Virus record (IMG/VR): IMGVR_UViG_3300020050_013619
Coordinates: 64,001 to 76,229 of that record
Reading direction: 5' to 3' (one strand)
From: a virus
Taxonomy: Duplodnaviria; Heunggongvirae; Uroviricota; Caudoviricetes
Length of the DNA stretch: 12,229 bases
How positions within the stretch are numbered: the stretch's first letter is position 1; each line of letters begins with the position of its first letter. A model generated the notes under the pieces. That model searched no databases, had not been told where the DNA came from, and saw only the letters and a list, made by a program, of their open reading frames with translations. Shown one piece after another: positions 1 to 12,071 of this stretch. Position numbers and translations under genes: made by a program.

Positions 1-867
1 TTGGGATTTATCAAAATGAGACTAAAGGGAATGCCTGCAAAAAAGCATTTTAAGGTAGATGATGAGTGCGAGTTAAACATAATGAAAGCAATGCAAGAGT
101 GGGTTAGTGTTGATTTTACAGTTTCGACCAAAAGTAGAAACAAGAACAGCCCAAAAGTAGAAACAAGTTTCGACCAAAAGGACGAACATGTTTCGACCAT
201 AAGTACAAACATGTTTCGACCAAAGGGAGTGATATACAAGAAAGAAATAAAAGAAGAGAATACAAGAAATGAAGACAATACTTCTTCCCAAAAAATTTTG
301 ACAAATTTTTCGGATTCTGAAATTTTAGAAAAACCAGTCGCAGCCGAAAAAGAAAAAAAAGAAAAAAAAGTTGCGGCAAAAAAAGAAAAGAAAACACCTG
401 ACCCAGCAACCCGACCACACCTGCATGACGGATTCATCAAAATCTATGAGGAGATGCACGAGCAGTTGACAAAAACCAAAATACCCAACACAAAATGGAA
501 GCAGCAAGTCAGAGGTATTGAGGGGCTTAGAATTGCCATCATCGAATCGGCAGAAAATTTTAGAAAGGACAACAATCATGCAATGCCAACCGATGATGAG
601 ATTTTAAGCACATTTAGAAATTTTGTCCGAAAAGCATGGCTTGTTTCTGACGCATACAATCAAGGGCAGTTTTCGCCTAACCATCTGAACAATAATTTCA
701 TTTCATTCACCAACAAAATTCGTAATAACAACAATGGAAAAGCTAATAACAACCAATCCGACAAACTCACAGTTGAGCAACGCGAAACCCTCAACATGTA
801 TAAGCCCTCAAAGCCTGTCTTTACAAGCACAGACTTTACGCCAACAAATTTTGGCAATGTCGGATGA
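1..867 (+). CDS. Phage replication initiator-like protein, 5'-truncated (lambda O-type layout)
   Basis: Open from the window edge; the first residues (GFIKMRLKGMPAKKHFKVD) resemble the end of an initiator wHTH; internal iteron array followed by a Lys/Glu-rich linker, a C-terminal helical domain and an Asn-rich tail overlapping the next gene. Confidence 0.65.
   Translation: MGFIKMRLKGMPAKKHFKVDDECELNIMKAMQEWVSVDFTVSTKSRNKNSPKVETSFDQKDEHVSTISTNMFRPKGVIYKKEIKEENTRNEDNTSSQKILTNFSDSEILEKPVAAEKEKKEKKVAAKKEKKTPDPATRPHLHDGFIKIYEEMHEQLTKTKIPNTKWKQQVRGIEGLRIAIIESAENFRKDNNHAMPTDDEILSTFRNFVRKAWLVSDAYNQGQFSPNHLNNNFISFTNKIRNNNNGKANNNQSDKLTVEQRETLNMYKPSKPVFTSTDFTPTNFGNVG
121..226 (+). repeat. Iteron array (23-bp period), probable replication origin
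   Basis: GTTTCGACCA at 121, 167, 190 and 213, plus a degenerate unit at 144; consensus about GTTTCGACCAAAAGTAGAAACAW; dyad AAACATGTTT at 207-216; followed by an A-rich tract (about 230-395). Confidence 0.8.
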
Positions 868-2192: not shown

Positions 2193-2681
2193 ATGTCAAG
2201 TAATCAAACAAGTACACAAGCTACTCTTTCAATTGGTATTGACCCCGACACAGTCAAATCGGGCGTAGCTGTTTGGAATGGCAAAGAGTTCATTGATTTG
2301 ATGGCATTGGATTTTTGGAGCACCATACAATGGTTGCTTGATAATCGGCAAAATATCCGATTGGTTAAGGTTGAGGGTGGCTGGTTGAATGAATCTAACT
2401 GGCATCTAACTTATAGAAATGCTAAAACAGGCAAAATAGAGACCGCAGGTCCTGAAAAAGCCGCTTCAATGGGTGTTGACTTAGGGCGAAACCAGCAGAC
2501 AGGACTTTTATTGGTCGAGTTTCTTGAAAAATTCAATTTCCCTTTTCAAGTTGTTAGACCCCTCAGTAATAACTGGTGGGCAGAGGATAAGCAAAGGAAA
2601 TTCAATAAAATTACAGGTTGGACTAAGCGAAGCAATCCCGAAAAGCGAGATGCCGCGATGCTGGTTTTTGGAATGAAGTAA
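2193..2681 (+). CDS. Phage RuvC-like Holliday junction resolvase
   Basis: N-terminal IGIDPD..SGVAVW (RNase H strand 1 Asp), central VKVE and C-terminal RDAAML match the RuvC-type acidic catalytic pattern; 162 aa. Confidence 0.65.
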   Translation: MSSNQTSTQATLSIGIDPDTVKSGVAVWNGKEFIDLMALDFWSTIQWLLDNRQNIRLVKVEGGWLNESNWHLTYRNAKTGKIETAGPEKAASMGVDLGRNQQTGLLLVEFLEKFNFPFQVVRPLSNNWWAEDKQRKFNKITGWTKRSNPEKRDAAMLVFGMK

Positions 2682-2729
2682 TTCTATCTTTTTTTAAAAA
2701 TATCTTAAATATCTTAAAAATTTCTGACA

Positions 2730-3038
2730 ATGAAAAAAAGTAAAGTCAATAACGATGCCGTAAAGAAAGCGGTGCTTGCGTTTCGTGCAGTCAACCACAA
2801 GCTCCGTCAACAAATCATTGATGTATTACAAGAAGCAGAGGCAAACAATCAAAAAATCACTGTGACCGATTTGTATATCAAATTGCGCCTTGAGCAATCC
2901 GTTGCCTCACAACATCTGGCTATTCTGCGCCGTGCAAAAGTTGTTACAACTGAGCGAAGCGGCAAATTTATCCACTATCGTGTGGATACGGAACGCATTG
3001 ATGCCATCAATGAGGCGGCTGAAAAATTGGTCGGCTAA
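2730..3038 (+). CDS. ArsR/SmtB-family winged-helix transcriptional regulator
   Basis: FRAVNHKLRQQII...TVTDLYIKLRLEQSVASQHLAILRRAKVVTTERSGKFIHYRV is the canonical ArsR HTH plus wing (SQHL..L...G....Y). Confidence 0.9.
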   Translation: MKKSKVNNDAVKKAVLAFRAVNHKLRQQIIDVLQEAEANNQKITVTDLYIKLRLEQSVASQHLAILRRAKVVTTERSGKFIHYRVDTERIDAINEAAEKLVG

Positions 3039-3431
3039 ATGATTTGGGGCTATGTCTATGTCATGCGTGGGGTAACACTGCGCTCCAAAATTGGCATAAC
3101 AAAATACCCTTACGCTCGGCAACGAAACGTGGACAAAACAACCAGAGGCGATATACGCATAGTCGTTTGCTATCGGTTTGTTTTCCCACGTTTTGTTGAG
3201 GGGTTACTACACACTGTATTTTCGGCTTTTCGAACACGTGTCAATGGGAGTGGAGGTACGGAATATTTTTGGTTGCCGTATCCAATTACAGCATTTATAC
3301 TAACCTTAACTTGGTTTATTTCGCTACTCCTATCTATTTTATCCGTGTTTTTTTGCATTATCTTATACCAAAGCAATGGTAGTATAGATAATGCCTTAGA
3401 AAAAATATTAGAGATTATTAATAATTTATAA
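3039..3431 (+). CDS. T5orf172/GIY-YIG-like domain protein with a C-terminal transmembrane segment
   Basis: GYVYV..KIGIT...R...VEGLLH..F...R....GGTEYF matches the T5orf172/MUG113 pattern; then hydrophobic ITAFILTLTWFISLLLSILSVFFCIILY. ATG immediately follows the ArsR stop codon. Confidence 0.65.
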   Translation: MIWGYVYVMRGVTLRSKIGITKYPYARQRNVDKTTRGDIRIVVCYRFVFPRFVEGLLHTVFSAFRTRVNGSGGTEYFWLPYPITAFILTLTWFISLLLSILSVFFCIILYQSNGSIDNALEKILEIINNL

Positions 3432-3436
3432 AACAA

Positions 3437-5989
3437 ATGCAACTTCGCCCATATCAACTGTTAGCTATTGGTCAAACCTTGAGTAAGTTGGCAACGGATG
3501 ATTCTGTGATGCTGCAACTCCCAACAGGTGGAGGCAAATGTCTTGCGAAAGGAACGCCCATCTTAATGTTTGATGGTACTATTAAAAACGTTGAGGATAT
3601 TATCATCGGTGATTTATTAATGGGTCCAGATAGTAAGCATAGAGTCGTAAAATCAGTTTGCACTGGCAGAGAAATGATGTATGAAGTTAAGCCAGCAAAA
3701 GGCGATACTTACGTTGTCAATGAAAGCCATATTCTTAGTTTGCGTTTAACTGGCAATAAGTGTAAGACTTACTGTAATGGAAAAGGGTACAACTCGGGCG
3801 ATATAGCCAATGTTTCAATTAAAGAATATTTGAATTCAAGTAAAACCTTTAAGCATTGTGCTAAAGGTTGGCGTACTGGCGTAGATTTTCCTAAGAACGA
3901 TAATACGCTACCTTTTGAGCCTTATTTTTTAGGCGTATGGCTCGGTGACGGATTTGGAAAGTGCGGGTCTTTCACAACTGGCGACCAAGAAATAAAAGAC
4001 TATTTGATAGAATATGCAAGTAGGAATGACTTGTCAGTAAGAGAAGAATATAACAGCGAAAATTCTATAAATCTGCATCTTATTGATAATGTTTGTCGAT
4101 TTAATAAAGGGTGTACCATAAATAATTTATTGAAGGAGCATCGTTTGTATAAAAACAAGCATATCCCACTTCTATATAAAACTGCTTCAAAAGAAGATAG
4201 ATTACAATTATTAGCGGGCATATTAGATACTGATGGGTATTATGACGCAAAGTGCTATGGCTTGACTTTTAAAAGTGAAAGACTACTTGATGATACAATT
4301 TTCATTGCTCGGTCATTGGGGTTTGCTGCTTACAAAAAACAGGTCAGAAAAATGTGTCACAACAACATGGTTGAAGGCACTTATTTTTCTTGTTGCATTT
4401 CAGGTGATATTGATAAAATACCTTGTAAAGTAGCACGAAATAAAGCCAATCCAAGAAAACAGAAAAAGAACGTTTTGAATGTTGGAATATCCGTCACACC
4501 TGTTGGTGTCGGTGACTATTTTGGTTTTGAATTAGAGGGTGCTGATAGGCTGTTTTTATTAGGTGATTTTACAGTTACGCACAATACGGTCATAATGGGC
4601 GAAATTGTACGCCGTTGTGTACTTAAAAACTATCCTGTCCTTATTCTTGCCCACCGAGAGGAACTTTTAACCCAGCCGCAAGACAAGTTTTTTCACCAAT
4701 TTGGTATTTACAGTGGCATCATTCAAGGGGGGCGACCAAAGCAATTGAGTTTGCCTGTTCAGATTGCATCAGTAGCCACATTTGTTGGCATGGTGCGAAA
4801 GGGATTTCAAAAGCAGTTCAAAGTCATCATTGTTGATGAGGCGCATCACTGCGAGGCGGAAACCTACATCGAAATCATAGAAGCTTATCCAGGTGCAAAG
4901 CTCATCGGATTGACCGCCACGCCTTACCGTCTTGACGGTACAGGTTTTACCGAGCGTTTTAAATCACTTGTCCAAGTGATAACAGTCAAGGAGTTGGAAT
5001 CGCAAGGCTTTTTGATTCCAGCCGATATGTTTGTCAATAAGATGGACACATCGGGTCTGAAAGTCAAAAAAGGTGAGTACGATGCGGCACAAGTCGGTGC
5101 CATGTTGTCGGAATACCAAGTGTTGGCAGACATGGTACAATCGTGGCGTGACCATGCCAACGGCAAAAAGACGATTTGTTTTGCGTCAACCATTGAGCAA
5201 TCAAACCTGATTGTTGAATACTTCAATACCTGCGGTATACCATCTGCACACGTTGATGGTTCATCAAAAAACCGTGAACAGATTTTCAAGGATTTAAAAA
5301 GCGGAAAAATACTGATGGTATCCAACGTCGGCATTGCTACTGAGGGGTTCGATGAACCATCGGTGGAATGCGTGATGCTGCTGCGCAAAACAAAATCCTT
5401 ATCGCTGTATTTGCAAATGGTGGGTCGTGGTTCTCGTCCATTCACCAATAAAACAACAGGTGTCAAAAAAGAAGTTTACACGCTCTTGGACTTTGCGGAC
5501 AATTGGGTGGAACATGGACTACCCAATGACGAGATTGACTGGGAAGCCTACTTCAAGGGCAGTGACAAAAAGAAAAAGAAGAAAAAAGACAAAGAGGAAG
5601 ATGAAGATGGTAAACAGTATGTGTTAAAACTTGATGATGGCAAAGAAGTGACGGTTAAACTATCCGACATGCCTAAAGATATCCGAGGTGTTTCGCTGGT
5701 TCGTATCATCAAAGCGGACAGAAAAACCATTAAGACCAAAGAGCAAAAAATATTTGATAGTGTTTTTAATACAACCATCAGGTTAAAACACAAGCCGTAT
5801 GCCGCCTTTTATCGTTGGCGTGAACGCATGATGAGCGATGAAAGAGAGCCTACTATTGAAGATTTCTTTTACGTTGCACAAATGCTCAATCTGTACAAGT
5901 ATTGGGCATACGACCAAAAGGATTTGTACGATAAAGAATTAAAAAGCAAAACAGACATTCAAAATCAAGTCGCAGAGCAAGCGGCTTAA
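3437..5989 (+). CDS. SF2 DEAD/DEAH-type helicase (RadD/UvsW-like) precursor containing an intein
   Basis: Q motif LRPYQ; Walker A PTGGGK|T split by the intein; Ia LAHREEL; II DEAHH; III TATP; IV ICFASTIEQS; V NVGIATEGFD; VI QMVGRGSR. Spliced product would be 501 aa. Confidence 0.92.
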   Translation: MQLRPYQLLAIGQTLSKLATDDSVMLQLPTGGGKCLAKGTPILMFDGTIKNVEDIIIGDLLMGPDSKHRVVKSVCTGREMMYEVKPAKGDTYVVNESHILSLRLTGNKCKTYCNGKGYNSGDIANVSIKEYLNSSKTFKHCAKGWRTGVDFPKNDNTLPFEPYFLGVWLGDGFGKCGSFTTGDQEIKDYLIEYASRNDLSVREEYNSENSINLHLIDNVCRFNKGCTINNLLKEHRLYKNKHIPLLYKTASKEDRLQLLAGILDTDGYYDAKCYGLTFKSERLLDDTIFIARSLGFAAYKKQVRKMCHNNMVEGTYFSCCISGDIDKIPCKVARNKANPRKQKKNVLNVGISVTPVGVGDYFGFELEGADRLFLLGDFTVTHNTVIMGEIVRRCVLKNYPVLILAHREELLTQPQDKFFHQFGIYSGIIQGGRPKQLSLPVQIASVATFVGMVRKGFQKQFKVIIVDEAHHCEAETYIEIIEAYPGAKLIGLTATPYRLDGTGFTERFKSLVQVITVKELESQGFLIPADMFVNKMDTSGLKVKKGEYDAAQVGAMLSEYQVLADMVQSWRDHANGKKTICFASTIEQSNLIVEYFNTCGIPSAHVDGSSKNREQIFKDLKSGKILMVSNVGIATEGFDEPSVECVMLLRKTKSLSLYLQMVGRGSRPFTNKTTGVKKEVYTLLDFADNWVEHGLPNDEIDWEAYFKGSDKKKKKKKDKEEDEDGKQYVLKLDDGKEVTVKLSDMPKDIRGVSLVRIIKADRKTIKTKEQKIFDSVFNTTIRLKHKPYAAFYRWRERMMSDEREPTIEDFFYVAQMLNLYKYWAYDQKDLYDKELKSKTDIQNQVAEQAA
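3539..4585 (+). mobile_element. Intein (349 aa) with a LAGLIDADG homing endonuclease
   Basis: Starts CLAKGT (Cys1, TGT at 3539); block B VVNESHILSL; endonuclease blocks YFLGVWLGDG and LLAGILDTDG; block F YFGFEL...LFLL; ends VTHN, followed by Thr(+1) at 4586. Lower GC than the extein (hand count 34/120 at 4081-4200 versus 61/120 at 5041-5160). Confidence 0.95.
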
Positions 5990-6011
5990 TAAATTAAATA
6001 CTAATATAAAC

Positions 6012-6446
6012 ATGATTATAAAAAATAAAATATTGGGCATTGACTCAAATGATGTACTGAAATGCAGTGACAAAACACAGCTTGTTGCATGGATGGATGC
6101 CATTGATTTGCAATTGGCAGGATTGAAAACGGTAAGAGACAGACTAAAAAGAGGTGTTGCCCAAACAGGTGACTATCAAGAAAGTTTCGAAACTTACTCG
6201 AAAAGAGAAGCCGTGATAAAATATCAAGGTCTTTTGATTCGCCAAATCCAACGGCGGTTGGGTGATATTCGAGATAATAAAAGCAAAACACGTTCACATA
6301 CGTATGAACGGCATTTTATGCTTGCCTGCAAGCGTCGGTTGAGTGATGATTTATTTTTATCGCTTTGCGATGAAGCACATGAAATGGCTAATCAAGAGGA
6401 AAATCAAGATGCTAATCGGGAGAACTTGGAGCAAATTAGCTGGTAA
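6012..6446 (+). CDS. Hypothetical protein (144 aa, helical/coiled-coil character)
   Basis: Fills the gap after the helicase on the same strand; A-rich leader; no recognisable motif. Confidence 0.7.
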   Translation: MIIKNKILGIDSNDVLKCSDKTQLVAWMDAIDLQLAGLKTVRDRLKRGVAQTGDYQESFETYSKREAVIKYQGLLIRQIQRRLGDIRDNKSKTRSHTYERHFMLACKRRLSDDLFLSLCDEAHEMANQEENQDANRENLEQISW

Positions 6447-6485
6447 TTAATAATCAATAATCAATTTTAAAATAAAGTCAAAGCA

Positions 6486-6722
6486 ATGAGCAATAGAACA
6501 TCAGTGATTCAAGAAATTAAGCGCGAGCAAACGATGCGCCGTAAAGTTTGGAAAATGTCTGGAGGGTTCTTCACCAATATCAAAGAGCGAACGCAGTATG
6601 ATAATTTGCAGATGGCGCATGATGTCCTGTCGGTTATGACGGATGGTGAGTTTGAGCGATACAAACAGTTGGTGGCTCGGAAGCAGAGTGCGGAAAATCA
6701 TAACGATAAAAAACTTTTTTGA
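6486..6722 (+). CDS. Hypothetical protein (78 aa)
   Basis: A-rich leader; TGA directly abuts the ATG of the next gene (6723). Confidence 0.7.
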   Translation: MSNRTSVIQEIKREQTMRRKVWKMSGGFFTNIKERTQYDNLQMAHDVLSVMTDGEFERYKQLVARKQSAENHNDKKLF

Positions 6723-7445
6723 ATGCCATTGTCCATTATTGAAAATATAGACTGTATGTTGGGTATGAAAAAGTACCCATTCAAATACTTTGATTGGATC
6801 ATTGCTGACATTCCATACGGTTTAAACGTTGCAAAAATGGCATATACACAGGAGGTAAAAAATACGGTAAAGCAAAAGAACGGAAACCGATTGAAGATAC
6901 CAAAAGAAAAATATGCTCAGAAAAATTGGGATGCCGAAGTACCAAGTCAAGCCTATTTTGATGAAATTAGGCGTATCTCATATAACCAAATAATCTTTGG
7001 AGTTGAATACGTTGATTGGGAAGGATTGGGTAGTGGTCGTATAAAGTGGGATAAATGCGTACCTGATAAACTATCATTCAAAGGTTATGAAATGGCTTAT
7101 TGTAGTGCCATTGAGCATACTGAAGAGATAAAGCTATTATGGTCAGGTATGAGACAGGCTAAAAGTATTTATGAGCCAACTATTCAACAAGGCAATAAGA
7201 GGCTGAACGAAAAGCGCATACACCCGACACAAAAACCTAAATTGTTGTACGAATTGATTTTTAAAAGATTTTGTAAAACGGGTGATAGAATACTTGACAC
7301 GCATTTAGGTAGTGGTAATAGTCGCATTGTTGCTTATAAAATGGGCTTTGATTTTGTCGGTCTTGAAATTGATAAGGATTATTTTGATGCAAGTGAAAAG
7401 CTGTTTAATGATTCGATTTCAATGCCACTGTTTGATAAAAGATGA
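6723..7445 (+). CDS. Orphan beta-class N6A/N4C DNA methyltransferase 1
   Basis: Motif IV variant IIADIPYG, HPTQKP, motif I variant ILDTHLGSG, and GLEIDKDYF; catalytic motif precedes the SAM-binding motif (beta order). Confidence 0.88.
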   Translation: MPLSIIENIDCMLGMKKYPFKYFDWIIADIPYGLNVAKMAYTQEVKNTVKQKNGNRLKIPKEKYAQKNWDAEVPSQAYFDEIRRISYNQIIFGVEYVDWEGLGSGRIKWDKCVPDKLSFKGYEMAYCSAIEHTEEIKLLWSGMRQAKSIYEPTIQQGNKRLNEKRIHPTQKPKLLYELIFKRFCKTGDRILDTHLGSGNSRIVAYKMGFDFVGLEIDKDYFDASEKLFNDSISMPLFDKR

Positions 7446-7492
7446 TTGCCCCCTCAGTAAAAGTTATTTTTCACTTATTAAACTAATCAAAA

Positions 7493-7708
7493 ATGAGAGG
7501 TACAGAGCTAATAACAGATGAAGTGATTACAAAAACAACCGATACTTTAAAAACAGTCATCGCAGATTTTTTCCCGCAACAGTCAGGTTGGTTTTTCCCT
7601 CCCACTTCGGTCACTAAAGATGTGATAAAATTAGAATTGCCCGATGGTATTGGCACGGTGTCTATTATCGTGCAGTATTTAGAAGAAGATAATAAACCCC
7701 CTCAGTAA
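7493..7708 (+). CDS. Hypothetical protein (71 aa); the stop codon lies in a CCCCTCAGTAA motif
   Basis: A-rich leader AAACTAATCAAAA; ends ...KPPQ* encoded by CCC CCT CAG TAA. Confidence 0.6.
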   Translation: MRGTELITDEVITKTTDTLKTVIADFFPQQSGWFFPPTSVTKDVIKLELPDGIGTVSIIVQYLEEDNKPPQ

Positions 7709-7740
7709 AACATAATATCAAACTCAAATCAATAAAAAAA

Positions 7741-8250
7741 ATGAAATTTAAAATCAATAAAGGAACAGAACTTTTTGAAAAGTTTCAGCAACTAAAGCAG
7801 GATATTCAAAGAGTCAATAAGGAAGCCACAAAATTGGTTGAATCTTTTGGTTATACAAGATATTGCATTGCGCCGCATTGTTTAGCTGGCGGTATTGGTG
7901 CAATTGAGATTCTGAGCGTACCACTAAATGACCGTAAAAAATGGGTGCGTGTATCGAAGCAAAATAGTCAACTTTGGATGCCAAGACAGAACAGAGAGAA
8001 TGCCGAATTGATTGACGAAATTAAGAGATTGCCAAAACTTGATTACGCTGAATTGAATGACTTGATTGGGTTTAAAGCAGGTGCGACAAATTCGTTCGGT
8101 TGGGCAACGCATCCAGGTGTTATTTGGCGCGATGAATACATTCTCATTGAAATGGCAGATGGGCAGATATACGAGCCATGCGATGGTATGGTAGAAATTT
8201 TGACATCGGAATACCAAAGACTGAAAAATCAAGTAGCGACCCCTCAGTAA
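7741..8250 (+). CDS. Hypothetical phage protein (169 aa); the stop codon lies in a CCCCTCAGTAA motif
   Basis: Strong A-rich leader; ends ...ATPQ* encoded by ACC CCT CAG TAA. Confidence 0.8.
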   Translation: MKFKINKGTELFEKFQQLKQDIQRVNKEATKLVESFGYTRYCIAPHCLAGGIGAIEILSVPLNDRKKWVRVSKQNSQLWMPRQNRENAELIDEIKRLPKLDYAELNDLIGFKAGATNSFGWATHPGVIWRDEYILIEMADGQIYEPCDGMVEILTSEYQRLKNQVATPQ

Positions 8251-8290
8251 CTCGGCTTTTAAAATGTGTTTTATAAATTATCCTTTTGAT

Positions 8291-8321
8291 GCCACTGTGC
8301 GCTTGCATGGTGGCTTTTTTT
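8291..8321 (+). terminator. Rho-independent terminator
   Basis: GCCACTGTGC-GCTT-GCATGGTGGC (10-bp stem with two G-U pairs) followed by T7. Confidence 0.75.
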
Positions 8322-8405
8322 GCTTAGAAAAAATACTACTCAATTATTTATTTTTTCTTTAAGTTGCTGCCGTTAAAAAATCTCTATCAACAAAAGAATC
8401 GGCAA

Positions 8406-9641
8406 ATGTTCAAACTAAGTCAGATTAAAACAAAGGCAAGAAACCCACGCAAAATAGACCCTGCAAGCATGGAACGGCTCAAAACGTCCGTGCTGTCTTT
8501 TTCTAAAATGCTGCCTTTGCGCCCCATTGTATATGACACCAAAACAGGCGAAATATTGGGCGGTAATCAGCGATATTTAGCCATTCTGCAATTGATAGAA
8601 ATGCCCGAAGAAACATTTGCGCATCTTTCAGCACCCGACAGGGATTTATGGCTTACAATAAAAGAAAAACGGGCAATACCCGACGATTGGGTGAAATCCG
8701 CAAGCGAATTATCGGCGGAGGAAAAACGCCGTTTTGTTGTTGCCGATAATGCCAATTTTGGTGAGTGGGATATGGAGCTTTTGAAAGAAGATTTTGACTT
8801 TTTGGAGCTTCAAAATTGGGGTATTGATTTGGAAATGCCTGATTTTGGTAGTGATGATACTGAGGGGGGTGATGGCGATAATTCAAAAACGACACCTACT
8901 GCCGAAGAAGATGATTTTGACGTGCCTGTTATTGAGGAAGTAAAGACGGATATTCAAGTTGGAGATTTGTTTGAGATTGGGCGGCATCGGTTGTTGTGTG
9001 GGGATTCGACGGATAAGGAAAGTATTGAAAGGCTAATAGATGGGGAAAAGTGTGATTTGCTTACTGACCCACCTTATGGTATTTCTGCAAATAAACAAAC
9101 ATTAGGTAGCGGTAAAAAAGATTTTTATAGAGGCGATAATTGGGATATTGAAGTACCTAATTTCTTTTATATACTTGATTTTGTTGAAAAAGCAATAGTA
9201 TGGGGTGGTAATTATTTTGCGGACAAACTGCCGATAAATAATGATTGGTTATGTTGGCACAAAAAAAATGATGGTCTTAGTTTTAGTGAATTTGAATTAG
9301 CGTGGTCTAATATTGGTAAAAATTGCAGGATATTAAGTCATCATTGGAGTGGCGAAAAGAAATTGCATCCAACTATGAAGCCTGTTAAAGTAATGGGATG
9401 GTGTATTGAATTCTTAGAAGAAGATACACGTATATTAGATTTATTCCTCGGCAGTGGCTCAACAATGGTTGCCGCACACCAATTAAACCGCAAATGTTTT
9501 GGACTTGAGTTAGACCCGAAATACTGCGAAGTCATTGTCACCCGCATGATAAAACTTGACCCGACCTTAACAATCAAGCGAAATGGCATAGACGAGACAG
9601 AAAAATGGCTGTCTAAAATAACCAAACTCCAAAACAATTAA
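8406..9641 (+). CDS. ParB-like N-terminal domain fused to a beta-class DNA methyltransferase (MTase 2)
   Basis: ParB-like NPRKI...LRPIV...ILGGNQRY...DN; acidic linker; GDLFEIGRHRLLCGDST; TDPPYG; HPTMKP; LDLFLGSGST; GLELDPKYC. ATG 8406 is preferred over TTG 8364. Confidence 0.88.
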   Translation: MFKLSQIKTKARNPRKIDPASMERLKTSVLSFSKMLPLRPIVYDTKTGEILGGNQRYLAILQLIEMPEETFAHLSAPDRDLWLTIKEKRAIPDDWVKSASELSAEEKRRFVVADNANFGEWDMELLKEDFDFLELQNWGIDLEMPDFGSDDTEGGDGDNSKTTPTAEEDDFDVPVIEEVKTDIQVGDLFEIGRHRLLCGDSTDKESIERLIDGEKCDLLTDPPYGISANKQTLGSGKKDFYRGDNWDIEVPNFFYILDFVEKAIVWGGNYFADKLPINNDWLCWHKKNDGLSFSEFELAWSNIGKNCRILSHHWSGEKKLHPTMKPVKVMGWCIEFLEEDTRILDLFLGSGSTMVAAHQLNRKCFGLELDPKYCEVIVTRMIKLDPTLTIKRNGIDETEKWLSKITKLQNN

Positions 9642-9693
9642 CATAACATCAATTATTTGTAAACAATAAAGCCTACTCTATCAACTGAAATAA

Positions 9694-10164
9694 ATGAATG
9701 AAGAAATAGAACTAAACGGTTTTTCACAAGACGATTTGGCGCGCATGTCGGATATGTACGTCCGTGGCGAGAATATTCACAAAATCGCCAATGAACTGAA
9801 TCTCTCGGACGTTGAAATACTGAGGGGTCTGCAATTGGTCTATGAAAGCCTGCAAAAAGCTGTGCCTTTCAAGTTTGACAATGCCATGATTATGCAGTTG
9901 TCAAAATTAGATAAAGCAGAAAGTGAAGCATGGAAAGCGTGGGATTCATCCAAAGAAGCCAAAGTCAAGAAGTCCAGCAAAGCAACAAAGGTTGCTGGTA
10001 AAAGAAAAAAATCAAGCGACGAAGATAATGACGGCGATGGCAACATGAAGCCTGATTCAATGGAACAATCGCAGGTCACGGAGCAACGTGACGGTTCGCC
10101 CGCTTTCTTGGGCATTGTCGTTAATTGCGTTCGGACACGGTTGGAGATTTTGAGGCTGAAATAG
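9694..10164 (+). CDS. HTH protein resembling a phage terminase small subunit
   Basis: N-terminal HTH-like MYVRGENIHKIANELNLS, then KLDKAESEAWKAWDSSK, a charged low-complexity stretch and GSPAFL...R..IL; sits after a ParB-MTase, where TerS genes commonly lie. Confidence 0.5.
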   Translation: MNEEIELNGFSQDDLARMSDMYVRGENIHKIANELNLSDVEILRGLQLVYESLQKAVPFKFDNAMIMQLSKLDKAESEAWKAWDSSKEAKVKKSSKATKVAGKRKKSSDEDNDGDGNMKPDSMEQSQVTEQRDGSPAFLGIVVNCVRTRLEILRLK

Positions 10165-10246
10165 ATGATTCTCTTAGTAGTCGATAACGTTCCGCTTGAC
10201 GATATTGCCCTTTGGTTGGGCATTGTGGGAGGGGTTTGCAAAAAAT

Positions 10247-10293
10247 AGGCGGTAGTGGATTGTTACCTGCTGCCTTTTTTCTTTCTTTTTTTT
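10247..10293 (+). terminator. Possible terminator (bulged stem plus long T tract)
   Basis: AGGC-GGTA ... TACC-tgct-GCCT followed by TTTTTCTTTCTTTTTTTT; the stem is imperfect. Confidence 0.4.
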
Positions 10294-10356
10294 GAATTTA
10301 GTACCCCTCAGTATTTTATTAATTTTCAATGAGTTATATTAGTAAATGAAAAATAA

Positions 10357-10383
10357 ATGTAATTATTTTAAAAATAATTACAT
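10357..10383. promoter_or_regulatory. 13-1-13 perfect inverted repeat, probable operator
   Basis: ATGTAATTATTTT-A-AAAATAATTACAT, ending 7 nt before TTGACA at 10391. Confidence 0.55.
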
Positions 10384-10390
10384 AAAAGTA

Positions 10391-10420
10391 TTGACAAGTC
10401 AAAATAAACCCTTGTCTTTG
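10391..10420 (+). promoter_or_regulatory. Probable promoter for the two small ORFs
   Basis: TTGACA at 10391-10396 and TGTCTTTG at 10413-10420 (one mismatch to TAnnTTTG), 19 nt after TTG; overlapping dyads TTGAC-AA-GTCAA and GACAAG...CTTGTC. Confidence 0.5.
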
Positions 10421-10477
10421 TGAGGTCAAAAGGAAATGACAATAACAAAATTCTTAAATCATTAAAATTGAAAAATT

Positions 10478-10687
10478 ATGTCTAAAGTAACTTATTCTCA
10501 AGTATTAAATCTTATTACAACAGAGGAAAAAAAAGTATATGCAAAAGTTGCAAAACGTGAAAACCTCGCATCTTTAAAAGAATTTATTAATGCAACTGTT
10601 GTTGCAGTAAATGATAATAAAGGAACAATTGAAGATGCCGAAGCAATTATTCACGATTCACTAAGAAACATCATTCCGTTTGCATAA
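10478..10687 (+). CDS. Hypothetical protein (69 aa)
   Basis: A-rich leader AAAATTGAAAAATT; TAATG overlap with the next ORF. Confidence 0.7.
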   Translation: MSKVTYSQVLNLITTEEKKVYAKVAKRENLASLKEFINATVVAVNDNKGTIEDAEAIIHDSLRNIIPFA

Positions 10688-10902
10688 TGAATAAAGCCTT
10701 TATTCTCCAAATCAAAGAGTCAAACGCCTTTTACTTGTTTGGCTCTTTGGTTCAACTTTTTGCTGAACACGGTGAAATTATTGAGCGTAAAATCAGAACG
10801 CTTCGCAATATAGATTTTGACTTAAAAGATTATGAAGATAACCACGTCAAAATTATGCAACGACCTATTGTTCGTTCTAAACACCGTGACAATTTTTTAT
10901 AG
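10687..10902 (+). CDS. Hypothetical small protein (71 aa) with a YLFGSL motif and basic C-terminus
   Basis: Coupled to the upstream ORF by a TAATG overlap; resembles, from memory, small Bacteroidota phage proteins with a conserved FGS motif. Confidence 0.65.
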   Translation: MNKAFILQIKESNAFYLFGSLVQLFAEHGEIIERKIRTLRNIDFDLKDYEDNHVKIMQRPIVRSKHRDNFL

Positions 10903-10986
10903 TTCCCACGATGCCCTTTTCGGTTGCAGGGAACGTCTGCATTGCTGAACACCGCTTTTTGGGTGGGGTTTAGTGTGTTGGCATTT

Positions 10987-11030
10987 AAAAAGCGGTTTGC
11001 AGCAATGCTTTGTTAGCCGCTTTTTTTCTT
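10987..11030 (+). terminator. Rho-independent terminator whose 5' arm can alternatively pair upstream
   Basis: GCGGT...GCCGC stem (10992-10996 with 11016-11020) extended by further weak pairs, followed by TTTTTTTCTTT and preceded by an A5 tract. Confidence 0.6.
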
Positions 11031-11084
11031 TAAAATATATGTTTTTTTTCTTTTACACCCCCTCAGTATTTCGTATCTTTAAGC

Positions 11085-12071
11085 ATGATTTTAAGCGAAA
11101 ATAAAGTATATCACATGAACAATTTAGAGGGAATGAAACTAATCCCTTCTAAGTCTGTCGGCTTAATAGTTGCCGACCCACCGTACTATAAAGTGAAAGG
11201 TGATTTTGATTTTGTCTTTAAAAGTTTTGATGAATACCTTGAATTTATGGAAGCACAAGCAAAGGAATACAAGCGCATTTTAGCGGATAATGGTACTTTG
11301 TTTGTTTATGGTCACGCTAAAAGAATTGCTTACGTTCAAGTCATATTCGACAAGTATTTTAATCTTGAAAACAATATTGCTATTGAGTTCAACCGACAAA
11401 CTAAAAAAGGGGTGTATGATTTTAGATGTTTTGCGCCTGTCTCTGAACGCCTTTTGATGTACTCAAATGAGATTGAAATGACGGGTTTAGAAATGATAAA
11501 ATTAGATGTTCAAAACTTTAAGCCTTTGCGTCAATATTTTGAGTATTTGCAAAAGTCTATCAATTTGGGATTAAAAAAGATAAATGAACATTTAGGGCAT
11601 AGAAAAGCAGAGCATTGTTTTTATTGGAATACTACTCAATGGGATTTACCAACAGAGCAAACCTATGACCAATTGATAGAAATGTTTAGGATTGATTTAT
11701 TAGAAGGCTTTAAGACATACGAAGAATTAAGGCAGACATACGAAGAATTAAGGCAGACATACGAAGAATTAAGGCGACCTTTCAATAATTTCATGGGGCT
11801 TTTTGACATTATGAGTTTTGACCAAGAGGCACATATCACAAGGCATTACGACCACGATACAGTAAAACCCGAAACATTGACAAGAGCGTTAATTTTAACG
11901 TGTTCACGTCCAAATGATTTAGTAGTTGTTCCTTTTTCGGGAAGTGGAACAGAACACGCAATGGCAATTAAAGAAGGTCGTAGGAGCATAGCCTTTGACA
12001 TTGAAAAGAAATACGTTGATATGTCAAATAAACGGGCAAATGTTCATTTAATGTCACCCGCTTTATTTTGA
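11085..12071 (+). CDS. Orphan beta-class N6A/N4C DNA methyltransferase 3 with a large insertion in the target-recognition region
   Basis: IVADPPYY, HDTVKP, VVVPFSGSGTE, AFDIEKKYV; about 150-aa central region containing a heptad repeat. Confidence 0.9.
   Translation: MILSENKVYHMNNLEGMKLIPSKSVGLIVADPPYYKVKGDFDFVFKSFDEYLEFMEAQAKEYKRILADNGTLFVYGHAKRIAYVQVIFDKYFNLENNIAIEFNRQTKKGVYDFRCFAPVSERLLMYSNEIEMTGLEMIKLDVQNFKPLRQYFEYLQKSINLGLKKINEHLGHRKAEHCFYWNTTQWDLPTEQTYDQLIEMFRIDLLEGFKTYEELRQTYEELRQTYEELRRPFNNFMGLFDIMSFDQEAHITRHYDHDTVKPETLTRALILTCSRPNDLVVVPFSGSGTEHAMAIKEGRRSIAFDIEKKYVDMSNKRANVHLMSPALF
11713..11775 (+). repeat. 3 x 21-bp perfect in-frame tandem repeat (TYEELRQ)
   Basis: AGACATACGAAGAATTAAGGC at 11713, 11734 and 11755. 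Confidence 0.95.

Follow-up and report, generated by a model that had tools for sequence, protein, structure and literature searches.

A hyperabundant 10-mer of an uncultured Saprospiraceae subclade, carried throughout the genome of a Caudoviricetes phage, is a candidate DNA uptake sequence

The final 12.2 kb of a 76,229-bp viral contig (IMG/VR record IMGVR_UViG_3300020050_013619, Caudoviricetes; positions 64,001 to 76,229, a stretch of 12,229 bp referred to here as the window) contains nine exact copies of the asymmetric 10-mer CCCCTCAGTA, six on the + strand and three on the - strand. This 10-mer is hyperabundant across the genomes of an uncultured Saprospiraceae subclade, whose members are likely to be the hosts of the phage. 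Its copies are kept at about one per 1–2 kb, on both strands, by a force that acts on the DNA itself, and that force overrides codon usage and amino acid sequence and preserves single sites across diverged species. The reading that we favour, with modest confidence, is that CCCCTCAGTA serves its hosts as an uptake word similar to the DNA uptake sequences (DUS) of Neisseriaceae and the uptake signal sequences (USS) of Pasteurellaceae, and that the phage would have acquired it through shared DNA exchange.

The original prediction, which was made from the letters of the window, had reported nine perfect copies. All nine were recovered (Table 1), and the reading-frame contexts given for them (RPLS, ATEG, DTEG, ILRG, PPQ-stop and TPQ-stop) are correct. 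Three copies are intergenic. When the window was shuffled with its dinucleotide composition preserved, 0.01 copies were expected, in agreement with an earlier hand estimate, and none of 200 shuffles contained nine or more; the GC content of about 36% assumed in that estimate was slightly too low, the measured value being 38.2%. The copy in the helicase gene encodes the T-E-G of motif V with the rare codon set ACT GAG GGG. There are two one-mismatch variants in all, at 516 and 4228, each possibly a decayed copy of CCCCTCAGTA. The gene that contains the first copy had been called a resolvase; PHROGs places it in the Holliday-junction type and not among site-specific resolvases.

Across the whole phage genome there are 35 exact copies (24 on + and 11 on -, or 0.46 per kb), where a third-order Markov model predicts 0.04 and where 21 control words of the same composition have no copies. 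The density in the window exceeds that in the remainder of the genome (0.74 vs 0.41 copies per kb), but this difference is not significant (9 vs 5.6 expected). Copies fall in genes of every module, including those for the terminase, portal, helicase, methyltransferases and resolvase; they run with as well as against transcription and use every frame in which the complement does not read TGA. The phage, a myovirus, has genes for terminase, portal, protease and sheath, and its recombination genes encode a Sak4-like annealase and a Holliday-junction resolvase. A megablast search of the window against GenBank phages found no near-identical phage, and an exact-protein look-up with the methyltransferase gave no match. 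Relatives of the helicase in viral contigs were loci merely 25–28% identical, too distant for sites to be compared.

The origin of the word became apparent when prokaryotic genomes, one for each species, were scanned for an inverted pair of CCCCTCAGTA: the matches were almost solely metagenome bins of Saprospiraceae. Five of these bins contain 3,055–6,948 exact copies each, against 0–5 copies of the reversed word; in the 7.3-Mb genome G001 the figures are 6,948 and 3. One GTDB genus of this family (phylum Bacteroidota) has 33 species, of which 22 contain 2,840–6,948 copies (0.46–0.95 per kb) and the remaining 11 have 1–39, with 0–8 copies of the reversed word in host genomes. Samples of 150 and 300 species of the family revealed no genome above background outside this clade, even with one mismatch allowed. 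A count over full phage and host genomes, as the original prediction had proposed, thus finds the enrichment well beyond the window, with 35 copies in the phage and thousands in each host genome. A phage-only distribution, which would have pointed to a phage protein site, is rejected by this count; the word originates with the host. One otherwise motif-free congener, G180, has 39 copies, several-fold more than its neighbours; these could be imported DNA or mis-binned contigs.

Two further features connect the phage with this genus. Its gene for an ArsR-type helix-turn-helix protein (window 2730–3038; match 2766–3009) matches, at 69–77% DNA identity, a gene on the chromosome in 29 of the 33 genomes; it looks host-derived and is a useful link to the host. 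Bacteroidota-type promoter boxes also precede phage genes. In addition, the word and its flank preferences recur in two IMG/VR contigs unrelated to the phage, at 0.76 and 0.94 copies per kb (28 copies in 36.8 kb, L173+L174, and 25 copies in 26.5 kb, L175+L176), and the former has portal, tape-measure, terminase and integrase genes. Eighteen of the 20 viral contigs holding an inverted pair of CCCCTCAGTA were discarded as chance hairpins with no further copies.

These distributions bear on whether the word could be a site for a phage-encoded function, for example the target of a methyltransferase, of a nicking or packaging enzyme or of a regulator. The three N6/N4 methyltransferase genes in the window, the C5 methyltransferase elsewhere in the genome and the position of several copies at gene boundaries would be compatible with such a role. 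However, thousands of copies are found in host chromosomes that lack this phage, two unrelated viral contigs have the word in common, and a set of 47 homologous methyltransferase loci from other metagenomes, 234 kb in all, contains the word at one locus alone, in a near-identical variant of the phage. Copies also lie within genes in both orientations, unlike promoters or terminators. A site specific to a phage protein is contradicted by the host distribution, and we consider any reading of this kind very improbable.

The anatomy of the word was analysed on a 160,904-bp contig of one host species and on 400 kb of a second. The first contains 162 copies against a Markov expectation of 0.16. Strand use is symmetric, with 81 copies on + and 81 on - in the first species and 116 on + and 125 on - (241 copies) in the second; there is no polarity in 10- or 40-kb bins and no relation to GC skew, and a runs test on orientation gave 113 runs where 121 were expected. 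Spacing is more even than chance, with coefficients of variation of 0.69 and 0.72 compared with 0.99 for random placement (P<0.0002), and the phage copies show the same tendency (coefficient of variation 0.75, P=0.06). ORFs (open reading frames) contain 81% of the host copies, at a coding density of 85%, and copies occur in each of the five stop-free frames. For every seven exact copies there is about one variant with a single mismatch.

The absence of polarity speaks against a recombination hotspot such as Escherichia coli Chi (GCTGGTGG) or a translocase guide such as the FtsK-orienting polar sequences (KOPS; GGGNAGGG), which would be oriented relative to replication. Like CCCCTCAGTA, these are asymmetric, over-represented words, and they are read by DNA-processing machines; an asymmetric word that is abundant in both chromosome and phage is what such a signal might produce, and phages that lack recombination control of their own are known to carry Chi. 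Chi and KOPS are nevertheless strongly co-oriented with replication and far less enriched, whereas the host copies of CCCCTCAGTA show no switch of orientation, the phage copies are mixed (24+/11-) and an enrichment of about 1000-fold at one copy per kb is far above that of either signal. The orientation data contradict a polar signal, and we give a Chi- or KOPS-like function hardly any weight.

In the window, the copies are preceded by A or C at position -1 and nothing else in their flanks is conserved. In the host contigs A or C is present at -1 in about 95% of copies and T at +1 in about 60%, giving the extended consensus M-CCCCTCAGTA-T. Beyond these two positions the flanks of the phage and of the two hosts hold at most about 0.1 bit, except that A/T is slightly enriched at -7/-6 and from +11 to +13. 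Since the flanks are unconserved, CCCCTCAGTA stands by itself and does not form the centre of a longer repeat.

A series of results indicates that the word is maintained as DNA and not for what it encodes. Host proteins contain the tripeptide TEG 4.3 times as often as expected, and 46 of its 53 occurrences are encoded by ACTGAGGGG, where codon usage predicts 0.7%. Across TEG, PLS, PSV, LRG and PQY the excess in the host ranges from 2.6- to 6.5-fold, and most occurrences come from the word. A like distortion is seen in the phage proteome, with 11 of 14 TEG encoded by the word and 17 PLS against 4.3 expected; phage genes carry the word at between about half and the full density of the hosts, with host-like flank preferences. 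Conservation of individual sites points in the same direction. In comEC and the comEA-like gene, six sites occupy the same aligned positions in four or five of five motif-bearing species that share about 65% protein identity. Five motif-free orthologues have unrelated codons and different residues at the shared sites (for example, LATMVF in place of IPLSIV), so homologues from other lineages do differ at the positions of the word, a comparison that the original prediction had put forward. Likewise, at the DTEG site in the methyltransferase linker none of 36 metagenome homologues that span it has T-E-G or the word.

The same data dispose of the idea that the copies are fragments of a longer repeat, a miniature mobile element, an insertion-sequence end or an artefact of assembly or sequencing. 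A longer repeat or insertion-sequence end had been named in advance as an outcome that would overturn the original prediction, and no flank conservation was found beyond -1/+1. Nothing beyond the raw repetition speaks for this idea, while copies lie in frame within conserved protein motifs, where a 10-bp insert could not keep the reading frame, and the same sites recur in independent assemblies of different studies and at orthologous positions across species. It is contradicted by the flanks, by frame preservation and by independent recurrence, and its probability is close to negligible.

Uptake, recombination and protein loading had been offered as possible roles. The part of this proposal that finds support is the uptake-like one, the word being genome-wide, present about once per kb in the hosts and unpolarised; a Chi- or KOPS-like signal, a phage-only site and pairing in terminators do not, and the hosts are without the type IV pilus machinery on which DUS and USS rely. 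CCCCTCAGTA fits the signature published for DUS and USS, in which a word enriched about 1000-fold is used equally on both strands, is evenly spaced, is fitted into every frame at the expense of protein sequence, keeps its positions and is confined to one clade (PMC2817400, PMC3630211, PMC3458573). The DUS of Neisseriaceae (the 10-mer GCCGTCTGAA and its dialects, for which the receptor is the minor type IV pilin ComP) is, like CCCCTCAGTA, an asymmetric 10-mer found about once per kb on both strands in one clade, and CCCCTCAGTA resembles it further in lying within genes in several frames, in distorting codons and proteins and in having few one-mismatch variants. To our knowledge, uptake bias coupled to recombination is the sole mechanism that gives the combined signature. 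The two words are nevertheless unrelated in sequence, and the hosts of CCCCTCAGTA belong to another phylum, have no type IV pilus ATPase or secretin, show no enrichment of inverted pairs or of copies at terminators, and have no dialects in the genomes sampled. The USS of Pasteurellaceae (Hin-USS core AAGTGCGGT and Apl-USS ACAAGCGGT) share with CCCCTCAGTA hyperabundance, strand symmetry, more regular spacing than random placement would give, an excess of the tripeptides that they encode (PMC2817400) and conservation of position across species. An AT-rich signal about one helical turn downstream is shared as well, but is very weak for CCCCTCAGTA. The USS differ in that the hosts of CCCCTCAGTA lack pilus machinery, with 81% of copies coding and no association with terminators.

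Phages are known to accumulate such words. Temperate phages of Pasteurellaceae (Haemophilus and Aggregatibacter) accumulate USS up to host levels (PMC6776037), and the present phage resembles them in having taken on the hyperabundant word of its host to a host-like density, a mark of long co-evolution and of the identity of the host. If CCCCTCAGTA is an uptake word, a DNA-import apparatus of the hosts would prefer fragments that carry it, and imported alleles with the word would replace alleles without it by molecular drive, so that the genome would fill evenly with copies. The phage would gain copies as its DNA joined the same exchange. Lysis would free motif-bearing phage fragments, which could be imported as single strands into cells that are infected or become infected later and be annealed into replicating phage genomes; the Sak4-like annealase and the Holliday-junction resolvase of the phage could aid this step. 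Exchange with motif-rich prophages would be a second possible route.

The competence genes of the genus are compatible with DNA import of some kind. ComEC was found in 32 of the 33 genomes, DprA in 31 and ComFC in 32, and some species have a comFC-comEC-comEA operon arrangement (L267:924-4990, equivalent to G001:C7, with orthologous loci L268-L280). The ComEA-like protein, the gene for which adjoins comEC, has about 390 amino acids, an N-terminal membrane anchor and four tandem HHH_3 (helix-hairpin-helix) repeats where such proteins usually have a single DNA-binding module. Between motif-bearing and motif-free species, the comEA-like gene has diverged no further than comEC.

Several observations nonetheless weigh against uptake. 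The evidence for it is genomic throughout, and the hosts are known solely as metagenome bins. No secretin (PF00263) was found in any of the 33 genomes of the genus, and a PilB-type ATPase (PF00437) passed the cut-off in merely three. Because these components of a type IV pilus are missing, a pilin-receptor mechanism of the ComP type cannot apply, and the outer-membrane step and its receptor would have to differ from the pilin receptors of DUS and USS. The competence genes were rejected as an explanation of the word, since ComEC, DprA, the ComEA-like protein and ComFC are also present in the 11 motif-free species. About half of DUS and USS copies lie in terminators (10.1101/2025.10.24.684340), unlike those of CCCCTCAGTA: close inverted pairs occur at one of 162 and none of 241 host sites against about 4–5 by chance, so that the pairing in terminators foreseen for a DUS-like word is absent. 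Dialects were also lacking, with no other dispersed hyperabundant 10-mer in three motif-free congeners and no enriched one-mismatch variant in 300 sampled genomes of the family.

The phage itself adds to these difficulties. Six-frame searches of its genome for ParA (AAA_31), ParB_N, tyrosine integrase and serine recombinase domains found none, and its portal gene was not found in 32 of 33 bins of the host genus. For these reasons the phage looks virulent, at least over a contig estimated to be 93% complete, where a lysogeny gene could lie in the missing part. The phages that accumulate USS in Pasteurellaceae are temperate, whereas this one is a myovirus without detectable integration or partition genes, and likely-lytic Pasteurellaceae phages are poor in USS (PMC6776037).

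Such observations would be expected if CCCCTCAGTA were instead a self-marking or binding word of the hosts, maintained inside the cell by something other than uptake bias. Such a role could fall to a sequence-specific DNA-binding protein present in large amounts, to a nuclease or defence system that leaves DNA with the word intact, or to repair or conversion directed by sequence, and any DNA that replicates in these cells, that of a virulent phage included, would be pushed or selected to carry the word. This would be the simplest account of a phage that lacks lysogeny genes and yet carries 0.46 copies per kb with distorted proteins, and it would accommodate hosts with neither type IV pilus nor secretin, motif-free sister species with the same competence genes, and the lack of enrichment of inverted pairs. 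A precedent exists in the cyanobacterial highly iterated palindrome HIP1 (GCGATCGC), a hyperabundant short word without an established uptake role, which like CCCCTCAGTA occurs about once per kb with quasi-regular spacing, is conserved within clades and has a debated function (PMC13756078). HIP1 differs in being palindromic and recognised by DNA methylases, CCCCTCAGTA being asymmetric. On the other side, even spacing, positional conservation and proteome distortion are documented signatures of uptake sequences (PMC2817400). No candidate protein for maintenance within the cell was identified, and no known repair or binding system yields an enrichment of about 1000-fold for an asymmetric and fully fixed 10-mer. 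Carriage of the word is also not obligatory for resident DNA: a mobile-element-like contig of 44 kb in a host bin (G161:C20; L189-L191) has only seven copies (0.16 per kb). Six genes of this contig have counterparts in the phage, two of them methyltransferases at 33–48% identity, and the contig may be a more recently arrived mobile element. We regard maintenance within the cell as a serious rival, at well under even chances, and retain biased uptake as the reading that we favour.

A more specific form of the uptake reading can be put forward, in which the exchange system of Saprospiraceae would have evolved independently, would work without a pilus through an outer-membrane receptor, and would include the virulent phage as an active participant in which copies are selected. 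We think this rather unlikely as a whole. Were it true, phage DNA would be imported and recombined like self DNA, which would allow gene exchange between phage genomes independently of receptors or escape from a check on self and non-self, and copies in the phage would be under selection there, not merely inherited from the host.

The word had not been recognised as a described signal of Bacteroidota, and no paper describing CCCCTCAGTA was found: a literature search on the word and its complement matched unrelated primers alone, and a search for uptake sequences published for Bacteroidota or Saprospiraceae found none. Uptake sequences have been defined experimentally in two proteobacterial families alone, and a survey of late 2025 lists no family other than Neisseriaceae and Pasteurellaceae (10.1101/2025.10.24.684340). 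Within Bacteroidota, natural competence occurs in Riemerella, which favours its own DNA through a mechanism not yet known (PMC7965970). A Bacteroidota word with most hallmarks of DUS and USS but no pilus would show that sequence-biased exchange of self DNA, or another form of genome-wide self-marking, has evolved more than twice. With 22 species that carry the word and 11 that do not in a single genus, a Bacteroidota outer-membrane DNA receptor would become directly searchable. CCCCTCAGTA also offers a precise host tag for uncultured viruses, and a virulent-looking phage that carries it prompts one to ask whether phages can become involved in the DNA exchange of their hosts or turn it to their own use.

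Table 1. Exact copies and one-mismatch variants of CCCCTCAGTA in the window (position 1 is the first base of the 12,229-bp stretch)
Feature	Position	Strand	Context
One-mismatch variant CCCCTCAATA	516..525	-	G to A at position 8
Exact copy	2559..2568	+	In Holliday-junction resolvase gene 2193-2681; reads P-L-S (context RPLS)
One-mismatch variant CCCATCAGTA	4228..4237	-	C to A at position 4
Exact copy	5338..5347	-	In intein-bearing SF2 helicase gene 3437-5989; T-E-G of motif V (GIATEGFDEP)
Exact copy	7450..7459	+	Intergenic, 4 nt past the stop of methyltransferase gene 6723-7445
Exact copy	7698..7707	+	Forms final codons and stop (P-P-Q-stop) of ORF 7493-7708
Exact copy	8240..8249	+	Forms final codons and stop (T-P-Q-stop) of ORF 7741-8250
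Exact copy	8858..8867	-	D-T-E-G in variable acidic linker of methyltransferase gene 8364-9641
Exact copy	9818..9827	-	I-L-R-G in ORF 9694-10164; same place in near-identical variant contig L220
Exact copy	10304..10313	+	Intergenic, directly after a T-run; same place in L220
Exact copy	11059..11068	+	Intergenic; methyltransferase gene 11085-12071 starts 17 nt downstream

The window and the surrounding genome have several further features. The superfamily 2 (SF2) helicase gene at 3437-5989 has an intein near the N-terminus of its product, with a Hint domain at residues 35–104 and a homing-endonuclease domain at residues 253–327; the helicase motifs start after the intein, at about residue 384. 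Between the ArsR-type gene and this helicase gene lies a small T5orf172/MUG113 gene (window 3039-3431). The three N6/N4 DNA methyltransferase genes (window 6723-7445, 8364-9641 and 11085-12071) are found within 5.4 kb, and a large C5 methyltransferase is encoded at genome positions 2920-4701, an unusually heavy total load of methylases for one phage. When the variant contig L220 (1-1447) was compared with window 9006-10460, identity was 99–100% from about window 9445 onwards and about 65% upstream. The breakpoint lies inside the methyltransferase gene, so the upstream portion of this enzyme has been exchanged by recombination.

A second repeated word, TCAACGGAATATCAA, is found genome-wide, mostly within about 35 nt upstream of start codons, as for example at window 2180 (genome 66180). 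Its 9-base core, AACGGAATA, occurs 20 times, and 19 of these occurrences precede a start codon in the orientation of the gene and follow Bacteroidota-type TAnnTTTG boxes.

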